DNA from: Alphaproteobacteria bacterium
GTDB taxonomy: Bacteria; Pseudomonadota; Alphaproteobacteria; JBFXJJ01
Direction: 5' to 3'
NCBI GenBank assembly: GCA_050175015.1
Contig: JBFXJJ010000003.1
Location: 145,998 to 209,997 of the forward strand
DNA length: 64,000 bases
The position numbers and the translations under genes are program-made. Under the pieces are notes generated by a model. It searched no databases. It was not told the origin of the DNA and saw nothing but the letters and a program-made list of their open reading frames with translations. Below, in pieces: positions 16,745 through 44,573 of this stretch; position 1 is the stretch's first letter, and each line of letters starts with the position of its first letter.

Positions 16745-19093
16745 TTACTTTCTTATAACATTTTCTTTCATTCTTGTAATTGCTGCCAGAATTTTTTCTG
16801 GGGTTGCTGGCGGTTCAATCTCTGCTCTGAATTTATAATCACCAATACTGGCGATAGCGTCAGCAATTGCAAGCCAAACAGATATAGCCTGCATTATTGG
16901 TGGTTCGCCCGTTGCTTTTGAATGAAATATTGTGTCTTCTTTATTAGGTGAATTTTCTAAAAGTCTGACATTAAATTCTTTTGGAATATCACGGCTTACA
17001 GGAATTTTATAAGTTGACGGTGCGTGGGTTCTCAGGCGTCCTTCTTTGTCCCACCACAGTTCTTCCATAGTCATCCAGCCTAAACCTTGGACATATCCGC
17101 CTTCGACCTGCCCGAAATCAATCGCTGGGTTAAGAGAGTCGCCGCAATCGTGTAGAATATCCGCTCTTAAAACTCTGGTCTCGCCAGTCAGGGTATCTAT
17201 CGCAACTTCGGTGGCGCAGGTGCCATATGTAAAGTAATAAAAGGGGTGTCCTTGCATTTTTACGGGGTCGAAATAAATTTTAGGAGTTTTATAAAAGCCG
17301 TTTGACGACATAGAAACACGGTTCATATAACAAAGATTAGTAAATTCATTAAATGACATTACCGTATCTGCCGCTAAAACCTGATTGTTTTTGAAAACAA
17401 TCTTTTCTGTTTTGAAATGCTCTTTTGCAAAATCAATCATTTTGGTTTTTATTTTATACGCAGCATCTTTTATCGCCATACCATTCATATCGGCATCGGA
17501 AGAAGCTGCCGTTGCTGAGGTGTTAGGAACTTTATCGGTTCTGGTGGCATTTATTCTGATGTTTTCAATATCTACCTGAAAAATCTCGGCAACAACCTGC
17601 ATCATTTTCACTAAAAGACCTTGCCCCATTTCGGCGCCAGCTTGGTTAATTAGAATGCTGCCATCACGGTAAACGTGGATTAAGGCGCCAGCTTGATTCA
17701 AGAAAACCGCATTAAAAGAGATGCCGAATTTTAATGGGAATAAGGCTAAGCCTTTTTTGATAATGTCATTTTTAGCATTAAACTCTTTAATTTCCTGACG
17801 TCTTTTAACGATTTCGGCGGTTTTTTCAATATCTTCGAAAACTTCGCTGATAATATTATCGGTAATCTTTTGCCCGTAAGGAGTTACGTTGCGTTCTTCT
17901 TTGCCATAAAAGTTAGCTTTGCGGATTAAGATTGGGTCTTTTTTCAAATAAGAAGCAATGTGTTCTAAGCAGGCTTCAATTCCAATCATTCCTTGCGGGC
18001 CGCCAAAACCACGAAAAGCCGTGTTTGAAACGGTGTTGGTTTTGCATAAGAAGCCTTGCACTCTTACATCTGGCAGATAATAACAGTTATCAGAGTGGCA
18101 CAAAGCACGCTGGACAACAGGGGGAGACATATCGGCAACAATGCCCGATTTGGCAGCATAAATTAAATCAATGCCTTCAATCCGTCCATTGTCATCAAAG
18201 CCGACATCATATTTGACGAGGAAGTCGTGGCGTTTACCTGTAATAACCATATCATCATCACGGTTAAGACGCATTTTAACAGGCTTTTTGGTTTTCCAAG
18301 CAAGCAGAGCCGCAAAGGCTGCAAAAATGGTCGGCTGGCTTTCTTTGCCGCCAAAACCGCCACCCATACGGCGCATTTCAACGGTTATATGATTTTGAGG
18401 CAGACCTAAAACGTGCGAGACTCCCATCTGAGCTTCGGTTGGGTGCTGCGTTGAAATATAGATAATAAAGGTTCCATCTTCCAAAGGCGCCGCTACAGAA
18501 ATTTGGGTTTCTAGATAAAAGTGGTCTTGTCCGCCGATTTGAATTTGACCTTGGATACGGTTTTTTGCTTTTTCTAATGCCTTTTCATAATCGCCTCTAG
18601 CCATTACTTGCGGCTTGGTCAAAAAACTTTCTTTCTTTAAAGCATCTTCAATAGTTAAGATAGGTTCTAGAACTTCATAATCAACTTTAATTAGTTTGCT
18701 GGCTTCTTTTGCAGCTTTAATGGTGTTGGCAGCAATAATTGCTACGGGGTGTCCAACATATTCGGCATAATCTTCTGCTAGGGCAGGTTCATTTTTAAGA
18801 ATAGGACCAATATCGTTAACCCCAGGAATATCTTTAGCCGTCATAACAGCTTTTACGCCGTTTACTTTTAAAGCTTCCGAATAATCAATATTTTTGATTT
18901 TTGCATAAGCATAAGGACTTTGAAGAATATAACCTTGCAGGGTGTTAGGAAGCTCAGGCATATCGTCAACATAAATCGCTTCTCCCGTAACGTGAAGGTG
19001 AGCGCTTTCGTGAGCAACAGACTTATGAACGCCTCCGCTAATTTCAGATTTTAATTTATAGTCTTTATTTGCGTCTGATTTCATAATTCCCAT
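16745..19093 (-). CDS. xdhB: Xanthine dehydrogenase molybdopterin-binding subunit
   Basis: 782 aa. Aldehyde oxidase/xanthine dehydrogenase a/b hammerhead plus MoCo-binding signatures (GGGFGGKE, ...AFRGFGGPQG...). Overlaps the xdhA stop. Confidence 0.85.
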   Translation of the reverse strand: MGIMKSDANKDYKLKSEISGGVHKSVAHESAHLHVTGEAIYVDDMPELPNTLQGYILQSPYAYAKIKNIDYSEALKVNGVKAVMTAKDIPGVNDIGPILKNEPALAEDYAEYVGHPVAIIAANTIKAAKEASKLIKVDYEVLEPILTIEDALKKESFLTKPQVMARGDYEKALEKAKNRIQGQIQIGGQDHFYLETQISVAAPLEDGTFIIYISTQHPTEAQMGVSHVLGLPQNHITVEMRRMGGGFGGKESQPTIFAAFAALLAWKTKKPVKMRLNRDDDMVITGKRHDFLVKYDVGFDDNGRIEGIDLIYAAKSGIVADMSPPVVQRALCHSDNCYYLPDVRVQGFLCKTNTVSNTAFRGFGGPQGMIGIEACLEHIASYLKKDPILIRKANFYGKEERNVTPYGQKITDNIISEVFEDIEKTAEIVKRRQEIKEFNAKNDIIKKGLALFPLKFGISFNAVFLNQAGALIHVYRDGSILINQAGAEMGQGLLVKMMQVVAEIFQVDIENIRINATRTDKVPNTSATAASSDADMNGMAIKDAAYKIKTKMIDFAKEHFKTEKIVFKNNQVLAADTVMSFNEFTNLCYMNRVSMSSNGFYKTPKIYFDPVKMQGHPFYYFTYGTCATEVAIDTLTGETRVLRADILHDCGDSLNPAIDFGQVEGGYVQGLGWMTMEELWWDKEGRLRTHAPSTYKIPVSRDIPKEFNVRLLENSPNKEDTIFHSKATGEPPIMQAISVWLAIADAIASIGDYKFRAEIEPPATPEKILAAITRMKENVIRK

Positions 19094-20532
19094 ACCTCCG
19101 TAACTAATTCGGGTTTTGTAATTTGGGTATAAAGCCTTTCCAGCATATTCGCTGCAACGGTTGCTCGGTAATCGCCTGATGCTCTAAAGTCGCTTATGGG
19201 TTTAAAATCATCAGCAACGGCTTTTTTGGCATCTAAGAAAATGTCTTGGGTTACGTCTTTGCCATTAAGTGTTTTTTCAAGATTATAAGCAGGTTTGGGA
19301 ATTTCAGCCATACCGCCAAAGCCCGTTGTAAAATAAACTATTTTATTATTTTCAATTTTAAAGAAGAAAGCTCCGCAAACAGAAGAAATGTCTTGGTCGT
19401 GGCGTTTGGTAACTTTATAAACTTTGAATTGGAAACCTTTTTTTGGAATGGGAATCTTTATACTTCTGATAAATTCGCCTTCTTGTAAGGCAGTTTTACG
19501 ATAGCCTAAGAAAAATTCTTTAAGGGGAAGTTCTCTTGTTGCATCTTGCTTTTGTAAGTTTACGCTGGCTCCAAGAGCAATTAAAGATGGGGCAGAATCA
19601 CCAATAGGCGAAGCATTGCCGATGTTGCCGCCGATTGTTCCCAAATTGCGGATTTGGGTTGAACCTATTTTCCGTATTAATTTGCCATATTCGGGAATAT
19701 ATTTTTCAATTAAAGGCAGAGCCTTGACATAAGGAACGCTCGCACCAATTTCAATAAAATCAGAATTTTCGGTTAAAATATTGAGTTCGGGAATATCACA
19801 GGTGTGAATTACAACATCAAGTTTTCTATCTGCCTTAGTTACTAAAAGACCTAAATCAGTACCGCCTGCAAAAAGATAGGCACTGCTGTAATGATGATAA
19901 AGGGAACATAATTCTTTAAGGCTTTTAGGCGAAAAATAGGAAGTTTCATTATTGATTTCTAGGGTGTCTTGACGATTTCTAATCTGCTCAAACTTAGATA
20001 GAAGCTCGGCTTCATTACGGCTATACCAATCATCTTTTTTTCCACCAGTCCTTCTTGCAGCATCAATAATCGGGCGGTATCCAGTACAGCGGCATAAATT
20101 GCCCGCCAGCATTTCGTGGATCGTATCATCATCTTCATTACCTGTAACATCAGCGTGATACCACGCAAATAAAGACATTATGAAACCTGGGGTACAAAAA
20201 CCACATTGGCTGCCGTGTAGTTCATACATAGCTTGCTGCACAGGGTGAAGTTTGCCTTCTTTTGAAGCCAATCCCTCAACCGTTATCAGCATTTTGCCAT
20301 CAAGCTTAGGAACAAAAATTATGCAGCTATTGACCGCCTTATATTCAATTTTTCCATTAACAGGTTCTGCTAGAACAACAGTGCAGGCACCGCAATCCCC
20401 TTCAGCACAACCTTCCTTGGTACCATTTAGATTTTGATTTTTGCGCAAATATTCTAAAACCGTCGTCGTTGGCGGAAGATTAGAAATTTCGGTAAGCTCA
20501 CCATTTAATAAAAATCTTATTTTATTTGTCAT
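19081..20532 (-). CDS. xdhA: Xanthine dehydrogenase small subunit (2Fe-2S + FAD-binding)
   Basis: FLLNGE...CAEGDCGACTV and CGFCTPG/CRCTGY 2Fe-2S motifs, then a FAD-binding CO-dehydrogenase-type domain. Likely start MTNKIRF at 20532 with AAGGAG 7 nt upstream. Confidence 0.85.
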   Translation of the reverse strand: MTNKIRFLLNGELTEISNLPPTTTVLEYLRKNQNLNGTKEGCAEGDCGACTVVLAEPVNGKIEYKAVNSCIIFVPKLDGKMLITVEGLASKEGKLHPVQQAMYELHGSQCGFCTPGFIMSLFAWYHADVTGNEDDDTIHEMLAGNLCRCTGYRPIIDAARRTGGKKDDWYSRNEAELLSKFEQIRNRQDTLEINNETSYFSPKSLKELCSLYHHYSSAYLFAGGTDLGLLVTKADRKLDVVIHTCDIPELNILTENSDFIEIGASVPYVKALPLIEKYIPEYGKLIRKIGSTQIRNLGTIGGNIGNASPIGDSAPSLIALGASVNLQKQDATRELPLKEFFLGYRKTALQEGEFIRSIKIPIPKKGFQFKVYKVTKRHDQDISSVCGAFFFKIENNKIVYFTTGFGGMAEIPKPAYNLEKTLNGKDVTQDIFLDAKKAVADDFKPISDFRASGDYRATVAANMLERLYTQITKPELVTEVWEL

Positions 20533-20542
20533 TTTTACTCCT

Positions 20543-21883
20543 TTAAGCTCGTGGTTTTTGGAAGTTTCCATATCCACGTGCTACACAAATTCCGTCTTTG
20601 TGATCGTAAACTTTGCTACCTCTTACAAACGTCTGATATATTTTACCTTTAAAAATCATATTTTCAAATGGGGTAACTTTGCCCTTAGATAAAAAATCAT
20701 CGCCTTTAATAAGCCATTCATCAGCAGCATTAATTAAAACTATATCGGCATCTTTGCCAACTTTAATGGAACCCTTGCGGTCATCTAGTTTAAATTTTTT
20801 AGCAGTATTAAGAGAAGTTATTTCTGATAATTTCTTTAATGAAATTTTGCCTTTTAAATATCCTTCAGAAAACATATAAGGAAACAGGGTTCCAACTCCA
20901 GGAATCCCGCCATAAGCCTGCCAGATAGAACATTGTTTGCGTTCTTTAGGGCAGGGTGCGTGATCTGAGGTGATAAAAGATATTTTACCATTTTGAACAA
21001 GCTGCCACAATTCTTCTTTGTTATGATTTGGTTTTATGGGAGGACATATTTTAAGCGGCGCTCCAATTTTTTCAAAATCATCTAAGGTGAAAGCAAGATA
21101 ATGAGGACAGGTTTCGCCTGACAAATAAGGTTCATCAAGAAAAGACGCAGCTTTTGCTGTTCCAATATGAACAATGTGTAAGTCTGTTTGATATTTTTTT
21201 GCCAGAGATACAACTTTTTTTACAGCGGTAATTTCAGCTTCCTCAGGACGTGATTGAGAAAATTCCTTAGGTGAGTTGGATTCCTTGTTAACCTTTGCTT
21301 GATTGCAAACATCTTCATCTTCAGCGTGAACCATAACAATGCGGTCAAGTTCCTTAGCTGTTTTCAAAACCTCGTCAAGTTCGTCATACGAAACTTTAGG
21401 AAAAGTTTCCATACCAGAAAGCGTATAGGTTTTATATGCTGCCACATAAGGTGCAATTTCTTTCATATTTAAAGGAAAACCTTCAGTCATAGAAAGATGA
21501 CTTACTCCGCCGTGAAAAGCAAAGTCGATTATGGCTTTAGGTGAAACAATGCTTAATTTGTTTTCTAAATTGTTAAGACTAGTTACAGGAGGCAGAGAAG
21601 TGCAGGGCATATCAATGATAGTTGTTACTCCTCCAGAAGCTGCGGCACTTGTTCCTTGGAAAAAATCCTCTTGGGTTTCAAAACCTGGATCATTAAAATG
21701 AACGTGAGAATCTATTGCTCCAGGAAGAGCAAGCAAGCCTTTAGCCTCAACCGTATTTTTAGCATCAGGTAAGTCAGAGCCAATAGCGGCAATTTTGCCA
21801 TCTTTAACCAAAATATCGGCTAAAATGGTTTCTTCATTGCCCTCTATTAAGACTTCGGCTCCGCTAATTTTTAAATCATACAT
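20543..21883 (-). CDS. Cyclic amidohydrolase (allantoinase/hydantoinase/dihydropyrimidinase family)
   Basis: DSHVHFNDPGFE...GTSAAASGGVTTIIDMP metal-binding signature of the DHOase/allantoinase superfamily. 446 aa. Confidence 0.7.
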   Translation of the reverse strand: MYDLKISGAEVLIEGNEETILADILVKDGKIAAIGSDLPDAKNTVEAKGLLALPGAIDSHVHFNDPGFETQEDFFQGTSAAASGGVTTIIDMPCTSLPPVTSLNNLENKLSIVSPKAIIDFAFHGGVSHLSMTEGFPLNMKEIAPYVAAYKTYTLSGMETFPKVSYDELDEVLKTAKELDRIVMVHAEDEDVCNQAKVNKESNSPKEFSQSRPEEAEITAVKKVVSLAKKYQTDLHIVHIGTAKAASFLDEPYLSGETCPHYLAFTLDDFEKIGAPLKICPPIKPNHNKEELWQLVQNGKISFITSDHAPCPKERKQCSIWQAYGGIPGVGTLFPYMFSEGYLKGKISLKKLSEITSLNTAKKFKLDDRKGSIKVGKDADIVLINAADEWLIKGDDFLSKGKVTPFENMIFKGKIYQTFVRGSKVYDHKDGICVARGYGNFQKPRA

Positions 21884-21892
21884 TTTTACCCT

Positions 21893-24460
21893 CTATTTTT
21901 TAATATAACCCATAGGAAGATTAAAACGCTGTTTGCCGTCAAAGACTCTGAAAGCGCCTGCAACCGCAGAAGCCGTTGGCACTAAGCCGATTTCGCCTAA
22001 ACCTTTAGCACCGTAGGGACCATATTGATCAATCTCTTCAATCGGAATTACTTTCACTTCGGGTGTTTCTTTTACTCTTAAGATACCAATTTTTCCAAAT
22101 TTAGTGTGTACGGGATAACCATCTTTCCATTCACAGTCTTCGGTCAAAGCATATCCTAAACCCATATGGACAGCACCTTCTACTTGCCCTTCATAAAGGG
22201 TTTTGTTGATGATTCTTCCAGAATCGTGAGCGGCGATAACTTTTTTGATTCTACCTTCATCATCTAAGATAACGCATTGTGTCGCATAGCTGTAAGAATA
22301 ATGGGCAAAAGGTTTTTCAGGAAGTGTTCCTTTAAATGAATTATTCGTAAAATCACAAATCCAGTGTCCTTGATATTCCTTGCCAACAAGATTTTTTAAA
22401 CCATATTTATTAAGGTCTTGATTGAACTTCTGACAGGCATCAAGCATAGCATTTCCTAAAAGGGAGGTTCCTCTTGATGAGGTTGTCATACCGGTTGAGG
22501 CTTCAGAGCAGGTTTCATTTTTAACCGTTACAATTTCAGGGCTAAGTCCTGTTTCTTCACAAAATACTTGTAGAGCGACGGTGTGTACGCCCTGTCCCAT
22601 TTCGGTCCAGCCGTGATAAAGTTCAATTTTATCTTCAGCTTTGACAATTATTTTTACCAAGCTTTCATCAATACCGCCGTTGCCGACGCCAGTATTTTTC
22701 ACTCCGCAGGCAATGCCTGCAAATTTTGCGTTTTTGAAGTCATCTTTAACCGCAAGAAGCGTTTTCTTAAGTCCAACGCCTTGTTCTAAAATTTGTCCTG
22801 ATGTGATCATTGAACCAACATCAAGCGCATTATCATAACGGAACTGCCATCTGTCGAAGCCTCCTTGATGACATAAGTCATCAACGCAGGATTCCATAGC
22901 AAAGTTGGATTGGTTAACGCCAAATCCACGCATAGCTCCGCAAGGGACATTGTTAGTATAGATAGCCTTGGCTTCAATATCGAGATTAGGAACTTCGTAA
23001 GCTCCAGAAGAATGTCCTGCCGCACGTTCCATAACTTTCATACCAACAGAGGCATAAGCTCCAGTGTCGCCCAAAATATTGGCTTTTAATGCGGTGAGTT
23101 TGCCATTCTTGTCGCAAGCTAAGGTATATTCCAGTTTCATAGGGTGGCGTTTGGGGTGCATAAGCATTGATTCTTCTCGTGACAGCCTAACCCTTACAGG
23201 GCATTGGCAGAGCATCGAGTATACTGCTGCGTGTCCTTGAACGGTTAAATCTTCTTTACCGCCAAAAGCACCGCCATTTTGAACTTGAATAACATTAATG
23301 TTATTTTCTTCAAGACCTGTTATTAAGGAAATCTGTTTGCGGTCGACATAGACCCCTTGTCCTTGAGAATAAACCGTCAGTTTGCCTTCATCTGTAGGCA
23401 GAGCAACCGCACATTCGGTTTCTAGAAAAGCGTGTTCAATACGTTGGGTTGTCCAAACACCTTTTGTAACATATGCCGCATTTTTTATGGCATTTTCAGG
23501 ATCGCCGATCTTAAGCGAGCTTACAGATAGGACATTGTTTTCATCCCCGTCGTGAACTATTGGAGCATTGGGTAAAATGGCATCTTCCATAGAGCAAACA
23601 GGTGTTAAAACTTCATAGTCAACTTTTATCAATGAAGCTGCAAAACGAGCGGTTTCTTCACTGTCGGCAACCACTCCTGCAATCACATCTCCAATATAAT
23701 TGGTAACATCGCCCTCTTTTATCATAAATGGCCAGTCTAGCCTTACTAATCCAACTTTATTTTTAGTTGGCAGATCTTTTGCGGTTATAATCCTTACAAC
23801 GCCCTTAACTTTAAGAGCTTCCGAGGCATCAATGTTTAAAACCCTAGCTTTGGGATATTCTGAAAATTTAAGCGCTCCGAATTTCATACTCTCAAAAGTC
23901 ATATCAAAAACATAAGGACGCTTTCCTATAACCGCCATTGCGGTTTCATATTTTGAGGTTCGGCTTCCTATTTTGCCATCTTCTTTAGGAATAGGAGGAG
24001 CTTCTCCTCTTAGAATTTCTGCTGTAAAAAGAACGGCATCAATAATTTTTTTATAGCCCGTACAGCGGCAGATATTGCGGTTAATCGCAGCTTTTATATC
24101 ATCAATACTGGGATTAATATTATCTTTTAGAAGGCAGTATGCACTCATAACAATTCCAGGGGTGCAAAAGCCACATTGAATTCCGCCTTTTTCAACAAAA
24201 GCCCTAATAAAAGCCTGTTTAAAATCTTCAGGAAGCCCTTCCGCTGTTATAACTTCTTTCCCTGCAATTTTGCTTAAAGGCGTAACACAGGAAAGAGTTG
24301 CTTTGCCATCGACACACACCGTGCAGGCTCCGCAACTTCCCTGAGAACAGCCATCTTTAGGGGTGGTATCACCCCTAAAAAGACGTAAGTAGTTTAACAA
24401 AGAAATTTTGCTATCGCCTGAAAATTTTATTTTTTCTCCATTTACAATAAATTCCAGCAT
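21893..24460 (-). CDS. Second molybdenum hydroxylase with N-terminal 2Fe-2S ferredoxin domain fused to MoCo subunit (E. coli XdhD-like)
   Basis: N-terminal CSQGSCGACTV and CGFCTPG/CRCTGY motifs. The remainder is homologous to Mo-binding large subunits (GGAFGGKE). No FAD domain. 855 aa. Confidence 0.75.
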   Translation of the reverse strand: MLEFIVNGEKIKFSGDSKISLLNYLRLFRGDTTPKDGCSQGSCGACTVCVDGKATLSCVTPLSKIAGKEVITAEGLPEDFKQAFIRAFVEKGGIQCGFCTPGIVMSAYCLLKDNINPSIDDIKAAINRNICRCTGYKKIIDAVLFTAEILRGEAPPIPKEDGKIGSRTSKYETAMAVIGKRPYVFDMTFESMKFGALKFSEYPKARVLNIDASEALKVKGVVRIITAKDLPTKNKVGLVRLDWPFMIKEGDVTNYIGDVIAGVVADSEETARFAASLIKVDYEVLTPVCSMEDAILPNAPIVHDGDENNVLSVSSLKIGDPENAIKNAAYVTKGVWTTQRIEHAFLETECAVALPTDEGKLTVYSQGQGVYVDRKQISLITGLEENNINVIQVQNGGAFGGKEDLTVQGHAAVYSMLCQCPVRVRLSREESMLMHPKRHPMKLEYTLACDKNGKLTALKANILGDTGAYASVGMKVMERAAGHSSGAYEVPNLDIEAKAIYTNNVPCGAMRGFGVNQSNFAMESCVDDLCHQGGFDRWQFRYDNALDVGSMITSGQILEQGVGLKKTLLAVKDDFKNAKFAGIACGVKNTGVGNGGIDESLVKIIVKAEDKIELYHGWTEMGQGVHTVALQVFCEETGLSPEIVTVKNETCSEASTGMTTSSRGTSLLGNAMLDACQKFNQDLNKYGLKNLVGKEYQGHWICDFTNNSFKGTLPEKPFAHYSYSYATQCVILDDEGRIKKVIAAHDSGRIINKTLYEGQVEGAVHMGLGYALTEDCEWKDGYPVHTKFGKIGILRVKETPEVKVIPIEEIDQYGPYGAKGLGEIGLVPTASAVAGAFRVFDGKQRFNLPMGYIKK

Positions 24461-27055
24461 TTACCTGTCCTTCATACTAAGAGCGCCAGTAAAGCACATC
24501 TTCGTACAATAGGTACAGCCAACGCATTTATTAGGATCAAATACAGGTTTGCGGTTAGCATCAAGTGTTACTGCTTGATAACCACAGTTAGTACAATTTC
24601 CGCAAGATAAGCAAAGATCTTGGTTGCAAGTTGGAATTTGCTTGGTTGCAGGAAGATCCATAAAGTCAGTAATAGGGTTAGGCAAAGCACAGCCGATAAG
24701 TTCATTAACAGATTTAATTCTTTTAGCTTCTAATAAGTGAGAAAGTCCAGAATTAAGTTCTTTTATAATATGAACGCCGTGTTTCATTGCAATGGAGCAG
24801 AATTGAACATTTCTAACGCCAAGGGCAAGGAAGTTTGCTGCGGCTCTGTAATCCATTGGACCGCCGTTGCCTGAAATGAAGACGCCGAGAGGTGCGGCAT
24901 TAGCTAATGTTAAATAGCTGATAGGGAGCACGCCCTCGCCAGCCATACCAGCAACAACACCTTCGTCCCATTTACTATTGCCATCTTTTCTTGGTCTAAA
25001 GCCAAGAGTAGGGAAAGAGTTAGCAAGAGTTATTCCTACTTTCGATTTAGGATAATTTGCCATTGCGCCTTTAACCGCATTAATAATAGGAACGATGGAG
25101 GTAACCGCTGCGGTTAATTTGAAAATTTTAGGAATGTCAGGATTGCCTGCTTCTAAGACATATTCAATAATTTGTTGAGTTAGAGCCGCATTCTGGGAAA
25201 CAATATCCCCTTCGGTGCCATCACCGCCTTGAGGGCAGGAAAGGCTGTATTCAACCCCGATAACGCCTGCATCTTCAAGTTTTTTAGTGTTCGACTGCCA
25301 GCCTTTGCGGTCTGATTCTTCGTGTCCCGTAACAGGACCGCCGGTTGATGCCATTGTTAATCTGTCAGGATATTTTTTCCTTAGCTCTTCAACTTCACGG
25401 CAAACTCTTTCTAAGGCGTGATCAGAAACGTTATCGCAGTTAGCAAAAGTTGATTTAGTATAAGCAAACATATATCCAGCAGGAACGTGAATTGGAATAC
25501 CATCAAATGATGTTTTAAGAACACCGCCTGTCCAGCCATTTTGATATGCAAGCTTCATCTGATCGATACCGTCGGTGTGAGGCGCTGCTGACAAAATGAA
25601 AGGAGATGACATTTTAAAGCCGAAGAAATCACAAGTTAAATCAACAGGATTGGTATTAATACCTTCAACAGAGGTACGGCTTTTAGCTCTTTGTTTAACT
25701 AAAACCGAGGTTTTTTTCAAACTTTCATCGGTTTTTGTGCCATTTAAAAGAGCGTCAATATCGAGAGCTGCATTCTTACCAGAAGCAACAGCTTCAACAG
25801 CGGTTGAACCACCGTGAACACAATCGCCAGCATAAAATATTTTAGGATTTTTATCACTTTGGGTTTTATGACTGCCGCCAAGATATGATGCCTTGCCGCC
25901 AATAGCTAAAATAACTAGGTCAAAATCAGGACGTTTTACAGATGTTCCTGCAATATCAACTAACTTGCCTTCGTTGTTGTTAGTCGTTTTACAGGTTGTA
26001 AGCGTCTTTTTGCCATTTTCTTCAGTTATTTTTTCAACTCTGGTTCTGGTTGTAATATCAATTTTAGCGTCAAGTAAAAGCTGTCTTTCGTGTGATGTTA
26101 AACGCATATCTGCAACCGTTCTTCTAACAAACATTTCAACTTGAGAAGAACCAAGTCTTTTAGCTTCAGTTGCACAGTCTACAGCCACGGCTCCGCCGCC
26201 AATAATAGCAACGTTACCTTTGGTTTTATATTTTGCGGTATCTTTCAAATATTCCGTGAAAGGAAGCGCATTTTCAAGTTCGCCGTCAACTCCTAAGACA
26301 GAAAAATCAGGTTCGCCAACCGCAATCAAAACAGCATCAAAACCTTCCTTTAATAAACTTTCAGCATCTTCAACTTTAGTGTTTGATTTTAAAGTAATAT
26401 GGCTGGCTTCAAGCGTGAACTCATAATCTGCTTTGATGGCATCATCAGGCAGACGGCAATCTGGAATAAGAGAAGCGGCACCGCCTAAAACGTTTCTTTC
26501 ATCAAAAAGGGTGATTTCATAGCCTTTTCTTCCTAGGAAAGCAGCAGCTCCAATGCCCGCAGGTCCAGCGCCGATAACTGCTACTTTTCTGCCGTTTTTC
26601 GCTGGTTTTGCAGGAGCTTTAAGAACGCCTAAGTCTCGAGCTTTTTTGATGACGGTTGCTTGAATAGCAGGAATATTAATAGCTTTATCAAAGTTTTTCT
26701 TAGAGCAAGCACCCATACAAAGATTATCAGGGCAGATAATGCCGCAAACGTGTCCCAAAGGGTTTGCTGCTAAAATTTCTTTAGCCGCTCTGGCTATATC
26801 TTGTGGGGCTCCTTGTTTTGCTGCCATAATAAAGTCAGCAGGAGAACAGTGAACAGGGCAGCCTTCAAGACAAGGCTTATCTGCGCAGTATAAACATCTA
26901 TCAATTTCAGCTTGCAGCTGAGCATCAGTTAAATAAAGATTATTAGTCAAAATTTGCTCCTTAAAAATTATTAAGATTTTTTTATTAGAAACGATTCCAA
27001 AGATTCTTTGCAGCTTCCATAGATTTTGCCGCAGCTTCTTTTTCATCAACATCAA
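24461..27055 (-). CDS. Dihydropyrimidine-dehydrogenase-like flavo-iron-sulfur oxidoreductase (YgfK/PreT-PreA fusion type)
   Basis: N-terminal Cys cluster (CLYCADKPCLEGCPVHC). Two dinucleotide folds (VAVIGAGPAGIGAA and VAIIGGGAVAVDCA). DHODH-like barrel. C-terminal 2x[4Fe-4S] ferredoxin (CLSCGNCTNC...CVGCTYCTKMC). 864 aa. Confidence 0.7.
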   Translation of the reverse strand: MMLMKKKLRQNLWKLQRIFGIVSNKKILIIFKEQILTNNLYLTDAQLQAEIDRCLYCADKPCLEGCPVHCSPADFIMAAKQGAPQDIARAAKEILAANPLGHVCGIICPDNLCMGACSKKNFDKAINIPAIQATVIKKARDLGVLKAPAKPAKNGRKVAVIGAGPAGIGAAAFLGRKGYEITLFDERNVLGGAASLIPDCRLPDDAIKADYEFTLEASHITLKSNTKVEDAESLLKEGFDAVLIAVGEPDFSVLGVDGELENALPFTEYLKDTAKYKTKGNVAIIGGGAVAVDCATEAKRLGSSQVEMFVRRTVADMRLTSHERQLLLDAKIDITTRTRVEKITEENGKKTLTTCKTTNNNEGKLVDIAGTSVKRPDFDLVILAIGGKASYLGGSHKTQSDKNPKIFYAGDCVHGGSTAVEAVASGKNAALDIDALLNGTKTDESLKKTSVLVKQRAKSRTSVEGINTNPVDLTCDFFGFKMSSPFILSAAPHTDGIDQMKLAYQNGWTGGVLKTSFDGIPIHVPAGYMFAYTKSTFANCDNVSDHALERVCREVEELRKKYPDRLTMASTGGPVTGHEESDRKGWQSNTKKLEDAGVIGVEYSLSCPQGGDGTEGDIVSQNAALTQQIIEYVLEAGNPDIPKIFKLTAAVTSIVPIINAVKGAMANYPKSKVGITLANSFPTLGFRPRKDGNSKWDEGVVAGMAGEGVLPISYLTLANAAPLGVFISGNGGPMDYRAAANFLALGVRNVQFCSIAMKHGVHIIKELNSGLSHLLEAKRIKSVNELIGCALPNPITDFMDLPATKQIPTCNQDLCLSCGNCTNCGYQAVTLDANRKPVFDPNKCVGCTYCTKMCFTGALSMKDR

Positions 27056-28316
27056 TCGTTAGATGTTTGTTTTCCATTAGGACTTTTCCAGCACAAATTG
27101 TGGTATCAACCTGAGCAGAATTAAAGCCAAAAACTAAATGTCCTAAGACATTGCTGGCATCAAGAGGGGTAGGTGGGTATTGATCCAGCATTACAATATC
27201 AGCGGCTCCGCCTTCTTTAAGTTCACCTAAACCGATGTTGTTCCAGATACGGTTAGCAATTTTAGGATTGTTAAACCATAAGGCAGATGCTCCTTCAACA
27301 AAGCCCGCGGAAGGATTTCTTTGGTTGTATTTTTGCGCCCAGATGGCACAGCGAACTTCTTCACGCATATCAACTGTCATTGCATCTGTTCCGAGACCAA
27401 CGAGAATGCCTTTTTCAAACATTTTAACCGTGTTGGCAATTCCAACAGCATTATTCAAATTAGACTGAGGATTGTGAACAACCATAGTATTCGTTTTTGC
27501 TAAAAGATCTAATTCATTGTCATTGGTATGAACGCAGTGAACACATATGGTGTCTTTGCCTAGAACGCCCATTTTGTTGAAGCGTTCAACAACTCTTAAA
27601 CCGTGTTCTTTGACGCAGGCATCTTCATCACTTTCAGCTTCTGCCGTGTGAACGTGAAAACCTGTTTTTAGATCTTTAGCGAAAGAAACGCATTTTTCTA
27701 AAGTTTTATCACTTACGGTAAAAGAGGCGTGAAGTCCGAATAACGCCGTTAGCTGCTCATCATTTTCTTTCTGGCAGCGTTTAATAAAGTTGACGTTTTC
27801 CTCAATACCTTCTTCGGCAATTTTTTCACCGTCTCTATCGGAAACTTCATAGCATAAACAAGAGCGCAAACCAGTTTCTTTAACAGCTTCGGCAATGGTA
27901 TCAAGAGAACCTGTAATTGCAAAAGGACTGGCGTGATGATCGATTAAAGTTGTGGTTCCGCTTTTTATAGCGGCGATAAGGGGGAATAAGGCACTATAGT
28001 AGGTGTCTTCTAGTGAAAGTTTGGTATCTAAACGCCACCAAAGGTTTTTAAGCACTCCTCCAAAATCATAAGCTGGTTCAGCTTTGCCAAGACCTCTTAC
28101 TAAGGTGCTGTAAAAATGCATATGAGCATTAATGATTCCTGGGATAACGATTCTGCCGTCGGCGTTTATTTCTTTATCAAAAGAGCCTTTGATTTCATCA
28201 TCTTTGGCGATTTTAACAATCTTATTATTTTCAACCAAGATAGAATGATTAGGCAAAACGCGACCGTTTTCACCACCTGTAATAACAAGTGCATTGCGAA
28301 CGATTAAATTGGACAT
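26985..28316 (-). CDS. SsnA-like amidohydrolase (guanine/cytosine deaminase-chlorohydrolase family)
   Basis: HxH metal motif (INAHMHF) and TIM-barrel amidohydrolase layout. Probable start MSNLIVRNALVI at 28316 with a GGAG RBS. Confidence 0.65.
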   Translation of the reverse strand: MSNLIVRNALVITGGENGRVLPNHSILVENNKIVKIAKDDEIKGSFDKEINADGRIVIPGIINAHMHFYSTLVRGLGKAEPAYDFGGVLKNLWWRLDTKLSLEDTYYSALFPLIAAIKSGTTTLIDHHASPFAITGSLDTIAEAVKETGLRSCLCYEVSDRDGEKIAEEGIEENVNFIKRCQKENDEQLTALFGLHASFTVSDKTLEKCVSFAKDLKTGFHVHTAEAESDEDACVKEHGLRVVERFNKMGVLGKDTICVHCVHTNDNELDLLAKTNTMVVHNPQSNLNNAVGIANTVKMFEKGILVGLGTDAMTVDMREEVRCAIWAQKYNQRNPSAGFVEGASALWFNNPKIANRIWNNIGLGELKEGGAADIVMLDQYPPTPLDASNVLGHLVFGFNSAQVDTTICAGKVLMENKHLTIDVDEKEAAAKSMEAAKNLWNRF

Positions 28317-28387
28317 ATTTTTCTCCAGATAAAAATATTTTGAACTAAATATTTTATTTGGTTTATCCAAAATTTACAACGATTTTC

Positions 28388-29749
28388 TCAATTTTGTTTA
28401 TTCTCGTCATCATCTTCCTGTGAAGGTGCTGCTACTTCCTTCAATCTTTCTTTTTCATCAGCAGGAAGAAACTTATCCGCTAAAGCCCAATACAAAGATT
28501 GTTCACAAAAAGTCTTTGAAACCGCATAAGAAATCATAGATACGGCGAGTAGAGAGATGGTTGTTTTTTGGTCGCTGGTCATTTCCATAACAATAACAGC
28601 TGCAGTTATTGGAGAGTGGACAACGCTAGAGAAATAGCCTGCCATACACATAATGATTATAACAGATTTTGTCATATCTGGAAAAAAGTCAGCGATATTA
28701 GCGCCAATGCCTGCTCCAATAGATAGTGATGGCGCAAAAATGCCGCCAGGAATACCACTTATATATGAAAGAATGGTTGCAAGAAATTTATAAAAACCAA
28801 ACCATAAGGTTTCAATATCTTGCCCTTGAATTAACTTACAAGCTTGTTCATATCCTGTGCCAAAAGTAAGATTACCAGAAAGTCTTCCTATGATTGCAAT
28901 TAAAAGACCGCAGATCGCTGCAAAAATTACAGGACGGGCTTTTGTGAAAGCACTTAGCTTTTTGCCAAGAACTTTATCGGTATGGATAATGGTATAATTA
29001 AAGATTGTGCCGATAAGACCGCAGACTATACCGCATAAAATTACTAGATAGACCCAGTTTTCGTGAGAATCTATTAAAAGATTACTGCGTCCGAAATAGG
29101 TATAGTTGCCAGTAATAGACATAGAAACAATACCAGCAATAACAACGGTTGTTAAAACGATACCGCTGGTTTTGGTTTCAAAGGAACGGCTTAATTCTTC
29201 AATGGCAAAAACAATTCCTGCTAATGGAGTATTAAATGCTGCTGCAACTCCTGCGGCACCTCCTGCCAGAATTAATGATTTTCTAGTCTTGTAACTAGAA
29301 ATATGAAGGAAGCGTCCTAAAAAAGACATAATTGACGCTCCAATCTGAACCGTAGGACCTTCTCTGCCAATTGAAGCTCCGCCACAAAGACCAAGCATTG
29401 TTATAAAAATTTTACCGCAGGCTATTTTCATAGATAAGAGTTTAAAGCATTCGGCTTTTTTGCGAATGTGCATTGCTGCGATAGTCTGTGGAATGCCGCT
29501 GCCTTCAGATCCTTGGAAAAAAGACTTAGTTAAATAAACACCAAAAGCCATAAAAGATGGTGTTATGATTAAGGCAAGCCAATTATTTTTTTCCAGCATT
29601 TTAAAGAAAAGAGTGTCGGCAAAAAAACTGCCTTTGGCAAAAAAAACGGCAACAATCCCGACTGCCATAGCGCCAAGCCAATACACAAGGCGATATAACC
29701 ATATATTGGGTGATACCCACCACCGGTGATTATGCCTGAAAATTATCAT
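28388..29749 (-). CDS. ClC family voltage-gated chloride channel/H+-Cl- antiporter
   Basis: GSGIPQ, GREGP and GxFxP selectivity-filter motifs. About 10-12 TM helices. Confidence 0.8.
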   Translation of the reverse strand: MIIFRHNHRWWVSPNIWLYRLVYWLGAMAVGIVAVFFAKGSFFADTLFFKMLEKNNWLALIITPSFMAFGVYLTKSFFQGSEGSGIPQTIAAMHIRKKAECFKLLSMKIACGKIFITMLGLCGGASIGREGPTVQIGASIMSFLGRFLHISSYKTRKSLILAGGAAGVAAAFNTPLAGIVFAIEELSRSFETKTSGIVLTTVVIAGIVSMSITGNYTYFGRSNLLIDSHENWVYLVILCGIVCGLIGTIFNYTIIHTDKVLGKKLSAFTKARPVIFAAICGLLIAIIGRLSGNLTFGTGYEQACKLIQGQDIETLWFGFYKFLATILSYISGIPGGIFAPSLSIGAGIGANIADFFPDMTKSVIIIMCMAGYFSSVVHSPITAAVIVMEMTSDQKTTISLLAVSMISYAVSKTFCEQSLYWALADKFLPADEKERLKEVAAPSQEDDDENKQN

Positions 29750-29991
29750 TTTGAAATGTTTGTTTTCTTTGTTATTTTTTAGTCTTACACAACTAAAGAC
29801 AAGGTATATTACTTAAAATAATCAATGTCAACCAAGCTTTGAGAGTTTTTTTAAATGTTTTCGTATTAAAATTTTTTAAGAGATACAGCAAAGTTTTAGG
29901 ATAAAATTGTTATAGATTTTAAGGCGCGGTATTTTTTAGATTGAATAGTAATTTTTTTGTTTTTGTTAGAAGCAAATAACTTGGCAAATTA

Positions 29992-31137
29992 CTAAATTCT
30001 AACTCCTAATAGGCGGATTAAAGCAGTTTCGCAAGGAACAGATTCATTTAAGGCAATCATATGACCTAGGCCTTGAGCTTCGAGTTTACCAATTTCGTCA
30101 ACGACTAATATATCGGCATTTTTGCGGGCATCTATAATTGTTTTTTTAGCATAACTCCAAGCATCATCATAAAAGTCAAACCAGAGTCCATTTTTTGCAG
30201 GAGTTTCTCGGCGGCGAGCTAGTGGTATATGTTCACCTGTTGCGACATTCTCAACGTCATATCCTGAAGAATCAAAATCACCATTAAGCGAAGGTTGTAA
30301 AATGCCGCCAACTTTAAAACCTTGTTGCGATAATTCCGAAACAACACGTTTTAAAAAGCTGGTTTTTCCGCTTCTTTTCTCGCCTTTTATTTCTAAAGTA
30401 AAAGGAGGAACGTCAGGAAGAAGAGGCTTAATTTCCTCCCAATTATCTTTAGTATTAAGGTTAAAACTTCCAAAATCATTAGAGTATGGTAAGGCAAAGC
30501 CAATTTTATCCATAATATTATCAAAACGAGCTGTTTGAGGGGTTTCTTTTAAAACGTCTAATGCCGTTGTTTGAGACAACCAGACAGGCTGAATCTTAGT
30601 ATTGTTTTTTTCATAGAATAACGCATTATGATTGCTGTTATAAGCGGCATTACAAAGAGTGTGCCAAGAAGATATTTGGCAGGATATACGATCAACGGCG
30701 TGAAATAAAATGCCTTTTTCCAAATCATTTTTAAAAAAGCGTATTCCGGCCTGAACCGAAGAGAATGGTCCTTGTTCATAATCGTTATTAACGACAATAG
30801 AGAGATTTAAACTGCCGAGTTTAACATCGCACGGGGGCGTCAAACCATTTAAAAAGCTAAGTTCTTCAAAATAAGAGGATATATGATGCCCGAGCACGAT
30901 AACCGCTTTTTTTCCTCCGGCTCTACGAAAAACATCAAGCAGCAACATAATTAATGGCCGGTCTTGATGTTTTAAGAGCCCCTTAGGATATCCCATACGG
31001 CTTGATTTACCTCCTGCCATAATAATTAATGGCGGTAAATCATTAGCACTAATCAAGGATTTTATTGATGTTCTCACTTCTTCCCAGTGTGATAACATTA
31101 TGTTCCTTTGTTTTTCTGCTAGTTTCACGAGAGCCAA
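29992..31137 (-). CDS. Fusion: MocA/YgfJ-like molybdenum-cofactor nucleotidyltransferase + P-loop NTPase (THEP1/MobB/YqeC-like)
   Basis: N-terminal LIIMAGGKSSRMGYPKGLL (MobA-like NTP-transferase). C-terminal Walker A GEKRSGKTSFLKR and Walker B LVVDEIGKLE. Confidence 0.6.
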   Translation of the reverse strand: MALVKLAEKQRNIMLSHWEEVRTSIKSLISANDLPPLIIMAGGKSSRMGYPKGLLKHQDRPLIMLLLDVFRRAGGKKAVIVLGHHISSYFEELSFLNGLTPPCDVKLGSLNLSIVVNNDYEQGPFSSVQAGIRFFKNDLEKGILFHAVDRISCQISSWHTLCNAAYNSNHNALFYEKNNTKIQPVWLSQTTALDVLKETPQTARFDNIMDKIGFALPYSNDFGSFNLNTKDNWEEIKPLLPDVPPFTLEIKGEKRSGKTSFLKRVVSELSQQGFKVGGILQPSLNGDFDSSGYDVENVATGEHIPLARRRETPAKNGLWFDFYDDAWSYAKKTIIDARKNADILVVDEIGKLEAQGLGHMIALNESVPCETALIRLLGVRI

Positions 31138-42977: not shown

Positions 42978-44573
42978 TTATGAATCAGGATTTATTCCAT
43001 ATTCCTGCCATAATTTTTTTAATTTAGGATAGTTTTCTTGATCAACAGTACTGGTCAAAAATTTTCCCGCGGTAATTGTTGAAGACCAGTAATAAGCATC
43101 TAGCCCAGCTTGGCGTTTTAGTTCATTTAAAAACAGTTTTTTATCTTTTATATATGACCATACCTCAGGTAAGAGCAAAGCCAATTTTTTATCTTTTTCC
43201 TGAAAGATAACTCCATCAATATTGGGCTCAATTTGATCAAGCAATTCTCTTTCGTTAGTGAAAGATAACGGATAAGGAGGGGTTAGAAGAGAGATTTTTA
43301 CTGAAATAAAGGGAAGTTCTTTTTTATTAATAGGTTTGAAATTATTATCGTAAAAAGCAGCAAAGAAAGCATTGGTCGCAATGTCTTGCAGAATATTTTC
43401 CTTGGGCGTTAAAGAACCCATAGCACCTCTAATAGATCCAGATTTATTGATGCTCACAAAAGAAATTCCAAAACTTCTTAGTTCTTTAGGATAATCTTTT
43501 GGGTTAACAATAAGGGGTTTTCCTGTTTTGATTCCATTTATAATCGAATCAAAAGCGATTTTAACTAAGGTTTTGCCATACTTCTCAGTAATATCATTAA
43601 GTATTTGCTGTTCTTTTACTAACGGATTAACAAGAGGAGCATAGATTGCAAAGCTGGCATAGCCTACGACGCTGTCCCTTCGAATGTCGACATCACCAGA
43701 ACTTTTGATATCTAAGATTTTTATAGCATAGCCATATTGGTTGGCATAATTCAAAAGAGCTTGAATTGCTAAATAACCAGAAGCCTTAGCCTTATCGAGA
43801 TTTCTAATGTTGTATCCCAAAATAGCTTTAGATGTTGCGATATCTGCTTTTTTGCCTTCCATATAACTTAAATTGGTAGACAAATTGGAGCATACAATAA
43901 GCAACGTATCATCATCTTTAAGAGCCTTATTAATGAATAAGTCCATTTCTCCGATGTTGGTTTCTCCAAAAATTGCAGGAACAATTGTAACGCTGCCAAG
44001 TGTTTCATAGATAAAAGGCAGTTGAATTTCGATGCTGTGTTCATTTTTATGAACGCTTGCCAGCATTCTAACAAAAGGTAAATCTAAAAGAGCTTTGTTT
44101 GTTGGCTGATCTACTGTAACAGATCCAAAAGGCATTTGCCATTTAGCCGCTGGAGAAAGAGCTATGCCTGAAAATTTGCTGTAAGTTGCAGGTGCAAGAA
44201 TTACAACTTTTTTTATTTTGTTTTTTAAGCTTTTTATTTGGGCATAAGCCGTTCCTGCGGTAATGCCAGAATAACCTAGTGATGAATGAGGAACGATTAA
44301 GGCTTTTATCGGATATTGTTCATTAACAATCTTGGCATCTTTCATAAGATTATTAATTTGTTTTCGTAGTTGGTCGCTGTTTGCGGGATAAAAAAGATTA
44401 GCAACCGCAGGTTTGCGGTCTTCAATCTTTGATGTTTCAATCTGATTTTGCGTTTTAAATAACAATTCAGGAAAAAAAATTACAAACCAAAAAGCTACCG
44501 TTATTATTAAAAGAAAAACAATGAAAAATAACTCTAAGCGAAAAGATTTGTCTGTTGTTTTTAGTGAAAGCAT
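42978..44573 (-). CDS. Membrane-anchored fusion of Memo1-like (AmmeMemoRadiSam protein B) and AMMECR1-like (protein A) domains
   Basis: N-terminal TM helix. ALIVPHSSLGYSGITAG resembles Memo HAGYxYSG. The C-terminal ~190 aa has an AMMECR1-like ...SGSIRGAMGS... motif (consensus LRGCIG, with Cys replaced by Ala). Confidence 0.55.
   Translation of the reverse strand: MLSLKTTDKSFRLELFFIVFLLIITVAFWFVIFFPELLFKTQNQIETSKIEDRKPAVANLFYPANSDQLRKQINNLMKDAKIVNEQYPIKALIVPHSSLGYSGITAGTAYAQIKSLKNKIKKVVILAPATYSKFSGIALSPAAKWQMPFGSVTVDQPTNKALLDLPFVRMLASVHKNEHSIEIQLPFIYETLGSVTIVPAIFGETNIGEMDLFINKALKDDDTLLIVCSNLSTNLSYMEGKKADIATSKAILGYNIRNLDKAKASGYLAIQALLNYANQYGYAIKILDIKSSGDVDIRRDSVVGYASFAIYAPLVNPLVKEQQILNDITEKYGKTLVKIAFDSIINGIKTGKPLIVNPKDYPKELRSFGISFVSINKSGSIRGAMGSLTPKENILQDIATNAFFAAFYDNNFKPINKKELPFISVKISLLTPPYPLSFTNERELLDQIEPNIDGVIFQEKDKKLALLLPEVWSYIKDKKLFLNELKRQAGLDAYYWSSTITAGKFLTSTVDQENYPKLKKLWQEYGINPDS

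Follow-up and report, generated by a model that had tools for sequence, protein, structure and literature searches.

We analyzed a 64,000-nucleotide stretch of a contig assigned to an Alphaproteobacteria bacterium (GenBank assembly GCA_050175015.1, contig JBFXJJ010000003.1, positions 145,998 to 209,997), hereafter referred to as the window, whose minus strand carries a gene that joins a MobA/MocA-like nucleotidyltransferase to a THEP1-type P-loop NTPase. A first-pass annotation of this DNA had placed the two in one polypeptide, and the domain searches bear this out, with each half scoring far above the cut-off of its Pfam family: NTP_transf_3 matches amino acids (aa) 38-204 with 75.3 bits against a cut-off of 27 (expectation value, E, of 8.4e-21), and NTPase_1 matches aa 250-355 with 61.2 bits against 23.9 (E 1.5e-16), the latter over model positions 4-110 of 168 only. 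The case envisaged in that annotation, of a C-terminal half falling in an unrelated family or giving no P-loop match, does not arise with an NTPase_1 match of this strength, and the three motifs it had quoted are all read directly from the DNA sequence.

Integrity and domain identity of the fusion protein

The widest open reading frame (ORF) without an internal stop spans 29992..31137 on the minus strand and, starting from the TTG at 31137, would encode 381 aa. The start codon of the fusion gene is likely to be the ATG at 31098, which matches the NCBI-annotated protein MGD9638079.1 ('MAG: NTP transferase domain-containing protein [Alphaproteobacteria bacterium]', from a 213-kb contig; MAG, metagenome-assembled genome). 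This codon is preceded by a Shine-Dalgarno-like sequence (Table 1), and the N-terminal extension that it opens is also kept in the closest homologue, P0002 (the proteins and loci compared here bear P and L numbers, respectively). The overlap with the upstream pyridoxal phosphate (PLP) enzyme gene, put at about 50-90 nucleotides (nt) in the first-pass annotation, is real and amounts to 50 nt from the ATG at 31098.

Two genes joined by a frameshift are ruled out as an explanation of the architecture, because the ORF is continuous and closes with two consecutive stops, P0002, which comes from an independent contig and is 62-63% identical to the window protein, stops at the same residue, and the two-domain arrangement recurs in at least six diverged lineages at 36-63% identity. 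Some 20-25 C-terminal residues found in the other fusions are missing from both the window protein and P0002. An AlphaFold2 model of the whole protein, with seven sequences, has a predicted local distance difference test score (pLDDT) of 85.9 and a predicted template modelling score (pTM) of 0.85.

The N-terminal domain contains the NTP_transf_3 signature set (IIMAGGKSSRMGYPKGLL, D149 and FNLNTKD) and keeps the catalytic motifs AGGKSSRMG, PKGLL and GPFSS, the Asp of the DxP motif and NLNT. In the AlphaFold2 model it adopts the MobA-type alpha/beta fold, its best Foldseek matches being the MobA/MocA-related Rv0371c (2we9, target-normalized template modelling score, TM, of 0.79) and the Sulfolobus protein 3d5n (0.78). 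Its closest relatives in a HMMER search are stand-alone proteins of about 205-230 aa, which score 140-190 bits and form a subfamily marked by an invariant GHP motif. Against the MocA equivalog TIGR03310 these relatives score 71-89 bits, and none of the scanned members reaches any NCBIfam equivalog cut-off; the N-terminal domain is a member of a distinct MocA-like subfamily. The fusion protein itself reaches none of the NCBIfam equivalog cut-offs, and its match to the DVU_1551 family NTP transferase model NF045665 (61.8 bits versus 315) covers model positions 4-150 of 359 only.

The C-terminal domain had been described as a P-loop region of about 170 aa; its P-loop nature stands, while its size comes to about 135-140 aa. 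Walker A (GEKRSGKTS) and Walker B (ILVVDEIGKLE) are invariant across the fusions, and the subfamily is further recognized by the motifs GGIxQP and DE(I/L)G(K/R)LE-x-G-x-GH. Modelled alone, the domain reaches a pLDDT of 89, and its only significant fold matches in the PDB are human NTPCR (2i3b, query-normalized TM 0.72) and Aquifex THEP1 (1ye8, 0.67), as obtained with Foldseek. The same two entries are the only PDB sequences that its profile aligns with over their full length, whereas MobB, the signal recognition particle (SRP) GTPases and others align at the P-loop only. Pfam DUF2478 also matches the fusion protein (28.1 bits versus a cut-off of 22.3), and the equivalog for THEP1-type NTPases, PRK13695, is not reached (53.1 bits versus 156).

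Because both the fold and the full-length profile matches are confined to NTPCR and THEP1, with MobB and YqeC aligning at the P-loop, the C-terminal domain is of the THEP1/NTPCR type and is neither MobB, YqeC nor XdhC. The likeness to MobB proposed in the first-pass annotation does not hold: Pfam MobB (PF03205) remains below its cut-off (25.0 versus 26.6 bits) and covers aa 248-294 only, the stretch around Walker A; TIGR00176 scores 22.5 against 76.2 bits; and MobB chains in the PDB match only positions 6-38 of the domain profile and are not among the significant fold matches. YqeC (PF19842) was rejected as well, since the hhalign probabilities (54% over 31 columns for the Desulfovibrio YqeC, 23% for that of E. 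coli) reflect essentially the P-loop only, and so was XdhC/CoxI (PF02625, PF13478), for which there was no Pfam match at E<=1 and no XdhC-type fold match.

Genes surrounding the fusion in the window

The fusion gene closes a trio that begins with a CysK-like and a ThrC-like PLP enzyme, both of which are fold-type-II PLP enzymes without equivalog assignment; a promoter-like site (34156-34129) lies at the CysK-like gene. On the other side, a gap of 242 bp (29750-29991) separates it from a downstream block on the same strand that comprises genes for a ClC channel, SsnA, a YgfK-like protein, an XdhD-like protein, an allantoinase-like protein, XdhA and XdhB (Table 1). A consensus scan found no terminator between the fusion and ClC genes, and a promoter-like site (TTGACA-17-TATACC, at about 29802-29830) was read by eye upstream of the ClC gene; with this site, the ClC gene may or may not belong to one operon with the fusion.

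The order of genes in the window resembles that of the gut 2,8-dioxopurine cluster for purine degradation, where XdhAC, YgfK, SsnA and HyuA act sequentially (bioRxiv 10.1101/2025.04.24.650524). The mocA gene of E. coli K-12 directly precedes ygfK-ssnA-ygfM-xdhD, and yqeB and yqeC are oriented divergently from it. The first-pass annotation had spoken of MocA and YgfJ as two E. coli proteins, and they appear to be one: RefSeq places only mocA (b2877) between yqeC and ygfK, and the NCBIfam family is named matur_MocA_YgfJ. We take ygfJ to be an old name of b2877. Among the scanned ORFs of at least 120 aa in the 64-kb window, no member of the XdhC, YqeB, YqeC, SelD, MoeA or Moa families was found.

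Several features of the window merit a record of their own. Its YgfK-like protein pairs an N-terminal half with Fer4_20 and Pyr_redox_2 domains (GltD/YgfK-type) with a PreA/dihydroorotate-dehydrogenase-like C-terminal half, an architecture unlike that of E. coli YgfK (TIGR03315, 156 bits versus 835), and its counterpart in locus L007 has 845 aa. It is unusual to find a ClC gene within a purine-catabolic string, and the same string holds two xanthine-oxidase-family enzymes (16745-24460, minus strand), the XdhD-like protein and the canonical XdhA/XdhB. Farther away, five large ORFs on the plus strand at 50-4267 and 48807-56398 (1405, 706, 414, 694 and 676 aa, four of them consecutive) match no Pfam family at E<=1e-5, and a 531-aa protein encoded at 42978-44573 on the minus strand joins Memo-like and AMMECR1 domains.

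Table 1. Positions of the features of the fusion gene and its surroundings in the window, and of the loci of the membrane components M1 and M2 (see the following section)
Feature	Position	Strand	Remarks
Fusion gene, 368 aa from ATG 31098	29992..31098	minus	Continuous ORF; NCBI protein MGD9638079.1
Shine-Dalgarno-like AAGGA	31104..31108	minus	Seen on the minus strand, 5 nt upstream of ATG 31098
Out-of-frame overlap of ThrC-like PLP gene (3' end) and fusion gene (5' end)	31049..31098	minus	50 nt
N-terminal MobA/MocA-like nucleotidyltransferase domain	30526..31026	minus	aa 38-204 of the 381-aa ORF; Pfam NTP_transf_3
Nucleotide-binding signature LIIMAGGKSSRMG, then PKGLL with invariant Lys	30991..31029	minus	Read from sequence
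C-terminal THEP1/NTPCR-type P-loop NTPase domain	29998..30402	minus	aa 246-380; Pfam NTPase_1
Walker A GEKRSGKTS	30358..30384	minus	G257, K258 and T259 invariant in the alignment of fusions (A1)
Walker B VVDEIGKLE, then subfamily motif G-x-GH	30079..30105	minus	D347, E348, G350, E353, G358 and H359 invariant in A1
CysK-like PLP enzyme, 488 aa	32592..34058	minus	First of the PLP-PLP-fusion trio; 73% identity with its counterpart in the L007 trio, on a distant metagenome contig
ThrC-like PLP enzyme, 513 aa	31049..32590	minus	N-terminal CPxC...CP motif; Pfam PALP
Downstream same-strand block	16745..29749	minus	ClC, SsnA, YgfK-like, XdhD-like, allantoinase-like, XdhA, XdhB
ClC channel (ClC-type H+/Cl- exchanger)	28388-29749	minus	Between the fusion gene and ssnA
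SsnA	26985-28370	minus	Above TIGR03314 cut-off
YgfK-like/PreA-like fusion, 864 aa	24461-27055	minus	Domain scan
XdhD-like protein, 855 aa	21893-24460	minus	Above cut-off of 'selenium-dependent xanthine dehydrogenase' TIGR03311
Allantoinase/hydantoinase-like	20543-21883	minus	Domain scan
XdhA, proteobacterial type	19081-20577	minus	Domain scan
XdhB, proteobacterial type	16745-19093	minus	Domain scan
M1/M2 loci	L012:3628-5453; L014:9163-11640; L022:2414-3778; L034:9354-10510		Recurring beside or fused with NTPase or transferase
M1/M2 loci	L041:14193-16017; L059:589-2412; L064:3-1160; protein P0190		Recurring beside or fused with NTPase or transferase

Distribution and genomic context of homologues

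Full-length fusions are rare. An exhaustive HMMER search of 1.84 billion representative proteins recovered five clusters at 424-536 bits, after which scores fall to 239 bits and below; this lower range holds stand-alone relatives of the N-terminal domain (about 205-230 aa) by the hundreds, together with fewer relatives of the C-terminal domain. Scanning 185,579 species-representative genomes with a single Walker-B pattern gave three fusion loci, two of them full-length and the third truncated where its contig ends; their titles read uncultured Alphaproteobacteria, Rhodospirillaceae or 'Acetobacter sp. CAG:977'. A scan of JGI metagenomes yielded only one more full-length locus, which is of the CAG:977 type. 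All sources that bear a name are uncultured alphaproteobacteria. The architecture is already present in databases, uncharacterized, since one IMG record bears the automatic name 'CTP:molybdopterin cytidylyltransferase MocA/nucleoside-triphosphatase THEP1'; our literature search found no paper on a MocA/THEP1 fusion.

Across lineages, the gene that accompanies the fusion is that of the ThrC-like PLP enzyme, orthologues of which (49-51% identical) lie directly upstream of it in L001, L004, L005, L007 and L009, with gene overlaps of 11-35 nt in the annotated pairs of L004, L005 and L007, and are better conserved across lineages than the fusion itself. The order flagellin-like gene, FlbT gene, gene for a 517-aa PLP enzyme and fusion gene is found in the CAG:977-type loci (L001-L003, L010, L058) and in L004, L005/L006 and L009. 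Since only L007/L008 resembles the window, with CysK-like and ThrC-like PLP genes and the fusion gene divergent from ssnA, ygfK-like, ygeW-like and ygeY-like genes, the invariant partner of the fusion is the ThrC-like PLP enzyme and not the molybdenum-hydroxylase genes. The earlier placement of the fusion inside a molybdenum-hydroxylase operon thus describes the window, where it lies on the same strand upstream of ssnA and the ygfK-like, XdhD-like and xdhAB genes, but it does not generalize: molybdenum association was found in the window, in L007 (an ssnA/ygfK cluster only) and at the stand-alone loci L055 and L056, and was not found within 10 kb in L001, L004, L005 and L009, which represent four of the six fusion lineages.

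The PLP family is also the more widespread of the two, with 633 matches at E<=1e-10 in one search against the five fusion clusters in another. In L051 and L052 the ThrC-like PLP gene occupies the same FlbT-adjacent slot without a fusion, and throughout the CAG:977-type set (L001-L006, L009, L051, L052) it always follows a flagellin-like gene and flbT, whether or not a fusion is present, which points to gain or loss of the fusion gene at one fixed position. In a Desulfovibrio MAG (L053) the PLP pair has YqeC, a xanthine permease and a stand-alone MocA-like gene in its vicinity. These surroundings suggest that the PLP pair has a role in purine catabolism or cofactor maturation.

Genomic context was looked up for three stand-alone relatives of the N-terminal domain, and in two of them the transferase gene directly follows xdhC in a xanthine-oxidase-family operon. 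The order is MoCoBD, Fer2_2, FAD_binding_5, XdhC and transferase in a member of the Bacteriovoracaceae (L055; 8-nt overlap with xdhC), and Fer2_2, MoCoBD, XdhC and transferase in Flavobacterium sp. 9R (L056; 11-nt overlap with xdhC). The third transferase gene (L054) lies beside a NiFe hydrogenase and a molybdate-type ATP-binding cassette (ABC) transporter. The pairing or co-transcription of xdhC and mocA is a documented pattern (PMC2997495), and MocA has been reported to pass molybdopterin cytosine dinucleotide (MCD) to the XdhC-type chaperone PaoD (PMC3909100); combined with these observations, the contexts of the relatives support a role of the N-terminal domain as a nucleotidyltransferase of the molybdenum cofactor (Moco).

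Outside the fusion, the subfamily of the C-terminal domain occurs in three arrangements: as stand-alone proteins (P0199), joined to a membrane domain at the N-terminus that measures about 180 aa and is termed M2 (P0216, P0254, P0257, P0274 and Anaeromyxobacter L012), and encoded next to a membrane protein of about 205 aa, termed M1 (L012, L014, L022, L034 and L064). Neither M1 and M2 nor the upstream genes of L014 matched any Pfam family. These components also occur joined to each other or associated with transferases. L059 unites M1, M2 and the NTPase in one 607-aa protein, P0190 fuses M1 to the same MocA-like subfamily (245 bits to the subfamily profile), an M1+M2 ORF in Bacteroidales L041 directly follows a MobA-like NTP_transf_3 gene, and in Phycisphaerae (Planctomycetota) L014 overlapping genes encode M1, the NTPase, a P-loop-like+MobA protein (E 3.7e-18 to E. 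coli MobA) and MoeA. The pattern extends over Myxococcota, Planctomycetota, Bacteroidales, Altiarchaeota and metagenomes, and looks like an undescribed membrane-associated system. Because in unrelated phyla it connects transferase and NTPase by way of a third component as well as a Moco operon, it offers independent support for a functional partnership of the two in Moco metabolism. The proximity of MoeA to THEP1 (1.5-3 kb) in nine Thermoplasmata loci was dismissed as housekeeping synteny, since purQ, trm1 and an unknown gene lie between or around the two.

Proposed function and relation to known systems

The maturation of xanthine-oxidase-family enzymes, including those of the gut 2,8-dioxopurine pathway, is known mainly through MocA and XdhC-type chaperones. 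To our knowledge, THEP1/NTPCR proteins have no assigned physiological function, and the roles of MobB and YqeC are unclear. We favour, with somewhat more conviction than doubt, the reading that the whole fusion protein serves Moco maturation. Its substrate, its specificity for a nucleotide and a part of the NTPase in handling Moco are inferred: the N-terminal domain would most likely add a nucleotide monophosphate to Mo-molybdopterin; the nucleotide would presumably be cytidine monophosphate (CMP), giving MCD, the form expected for bacterial xanthine-oxidase-family enzymes, and the product would serve the XdhD-like hydroxylase encoded downstream. The tethered THEP1-type NTPase would most likely gate the hand-over or release of the cofactor through binding or hydrolysis of a nucleoside triphosphate (NTP), a part that may be likened in role to that of MobB beside MobA, or to the one proposed for YqeC beside MocA, and not in ancestry, the P-loop lineage being an unrelated one.

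A broader proposal, which we put forward tentatively and regard as somewhat doubtful, is that THEP1-type NTPases of this subfamily are an unrecognized accessory of Moco dinucleotide synthesis and delivery that works with M1 and M2 partners elsewhere, the membrane parts having been dropped and the NTPase joined to the transferase in Alphaproteobacteria. If true, one branch of the orphan THEP1/NTPCR family would gain its first physiological role, and a new membrane-associated Moco module would come to light, possibly with a maturation route for xanthine-oxidase-family enzymes that is independent of XdhC.

Several observations weigh against a function in Moco maturation. The four lineages named above (L001, L004, L005 and L009) have neither a molybdenum enzyme nor a Moco gene within 10 kb of the fusion, and the sole constant neighbour of the fusion, the ThrC-like PLP enzyme, has no known link to Moco. 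The N-terminal domain shares only 19% identity with E. coli MocA and falls short of the MocA equivalog TIGR03310 (65.4 bits versus a cut-off of 186.45); the GHP motif invariant in the stand-alone subfamily is replaced by IQP in the window protein and SQP in P0002, and the DxP motif of the window protein is without its Pro (DRIS instead of DRP). The first motif reads (M/L)AGG, in the window protein MAGG, as in MobA, versus TAAG in E. coli MocA, which does not by itself fix the nucleotide specificity; Neumann et al. in 2011 reportedly found this motif to influence it. Furthermore, most of the archaeal THEP1-type loci fetched have no M1 and no Moco operon, and our literature search found no paper linking THEP1 or DUF2478 to Moco.

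The constancy of the PLP gene invites an explanation unrelated to Moco, in which the ThrC-like enzyme and the fusion form a unit making a nucleotide-activated small molecule: a substrate derived from an amino acid would be produced or altered by the PLP enzyme, the P-loop domain would be a kinase, and NTP_transf_3 would attach a nucleoside monophosphate, in the manner of the kinase/nucleotidyltransferase pairs CobU or LicA/LicC. Such a unit would account for a PLP gene directly upstream of every fusion gene seen, across fusion identities of 36-41% and varying flanks, for overlaps of 11-35 nt in three annotated pairs and of 50 nt in the window, and for lineages (CAG:977-type, L004, L005 and L009) with nothing related to Moco within 10 kb. 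We nonetheless consider it unlikely, given that the PLP family is far commoner than the fusion and fills the same slot without it in L051 and L052, that the nearest relatives of the N-terminal domain are linked to XdhC and molybdenum hydroxylases, and that the PDB entries call THEP1 and NTPCR NTPases, not kinases; moreover, the adjacency may be partly inherited synteny, because all carriers belong to one alphaproteobacterial group. Less probable again is a replacement of XdhC by the THEP1-like domain, along the lines suggested in the first-pass annotation, in which the domain would hold the finished cofactor, aid its sulfuration or selenation and load the apo-hydroxylase with it. The two stand-alone relatives in which XdhC is translationally coupled to the transferase lend this idea some appeal, in that the fusion lineage has the P-loop domain attached where the XdhC neighbour is absent, as do the reported hand-over of MCD from MocA to PaoD (PMC3909100) and the failure to find an XdhC-family gene in the 64-kb window despite its xdhA-xdhB and XdhD-like genes. 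That negative result covers the window only, however, and the E. coli XdhC homologue yqeB also sits outside hydroxylase operons (PMC2997495); the domain, for its part, is small (about 135 aa), truncated relative to THEP1 and without likeness to XdhC in sequence (Pfam, E<=1) or fold, its fold matches being NTPCR and THEP1 only.

The altered motifs bear on one more alternative, namely that of a window copy in decay or in regulatory use, which would have lost transferase activity and kept only nucleotide binding or sensing. The His of GHP is gone in both the window protein and P0002, as are the 20-25 C-terminal residues of other fusions, and the Pro of DxP is gone in the window protein; yet the ORF and both Walker motifs are intact, the identity of 62-63% to P0002 comes with all other motifs and the N-terminal extension kept, and the structure model is confident. 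We hold decay to be the most improbable of the explanations considered here. Under the reading that we favour, a function of the whole protein in Moco maturation, the natural fusion of a MocA-like transferase with a THEP1-type NTPase and the independent M1 and MobA-MoeA links yield a concrete, testable hypothesis of NTPase help in the maturation of molybdenum enzymes. Of greater interest is the wider network that links M1, M2, NTPase and transferase, since it could give a role to part of the THEP1/NTPCR family. Practical value would be modest, in that such accessory factors might be required when MCD-dependent hydroxylases are expressed in a foreign host; should the Moco link be wrong, the fusion would be no more than a pairing of domains seldom combined, in a few gut Alphaproteobacteria that have not been cultured.

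Among known systems, E. coli MocA (b2877), a CTP:molybdopterin cytidylyltransferase, and the PucB-type homologues of B. subtilis belong to the same Pfam family as the N-terminal domain and share with the fusion the motifs AxGxSxRMG...K, G-x-x-S, the D-x-P region and (N/D)-x-(N/D)-TP, and E. coli mocA, just upstream of ygfK-ssnA-xdhD, occupies a position equivalent to that of the fusion in the window. The fusion departs from E. coli MocA in its low identity and equivalog score, in its (M/L)AGG in place of TAAG, in the IQP of the window copy in place of GHP, and in the extra P-loop domain. The C-terminal domain shares NTPase_1, Walker A, the Walker B motif DEIGK(L/M)E and the fold with THEP1 (Aquifex aeolicus aq_1292, 1ye8) and human NTPCR (2i3b), and differs from them in being shorter, in falling below PRK13695, in its GGIxQP and G-x-GH motifs and in its fusion to a transferase. 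YqeC, encoded beside mocA in E. coli and C. difficile, is likewise a small GxxGKT protein next to a MocA-type gene and a possible functional analogue, itself a marker of the selenium-cofactor trait with its own function unknown (PMC11448449), although the profile alignment of the C-terminal domain with YqeC covers essentially the P-loop only. Of the same design are the bifunctional MobA/MobB proteins (PRK14489, PRK14490), in which a Moco nucleotidyltransferase is joined to a small P-loop NTPase accessory. The fusion scores 50.4, 23.4 and 22.4 bits against the bifunctional MobA/MobB models, below curated cut-offs of 354-541 (379 for PRK14489), and its P-loop lineage is of the THEP1/NTPCR type, while its transferase is MocA-like, from an XdhC-linked clade, and not MobA. 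The design of a Moco nucleotidyltransferase with a P-loop accessory is thus known from MobA/MobB, and here its halves come from other lineages, in a fusion that is rare and unstudied.

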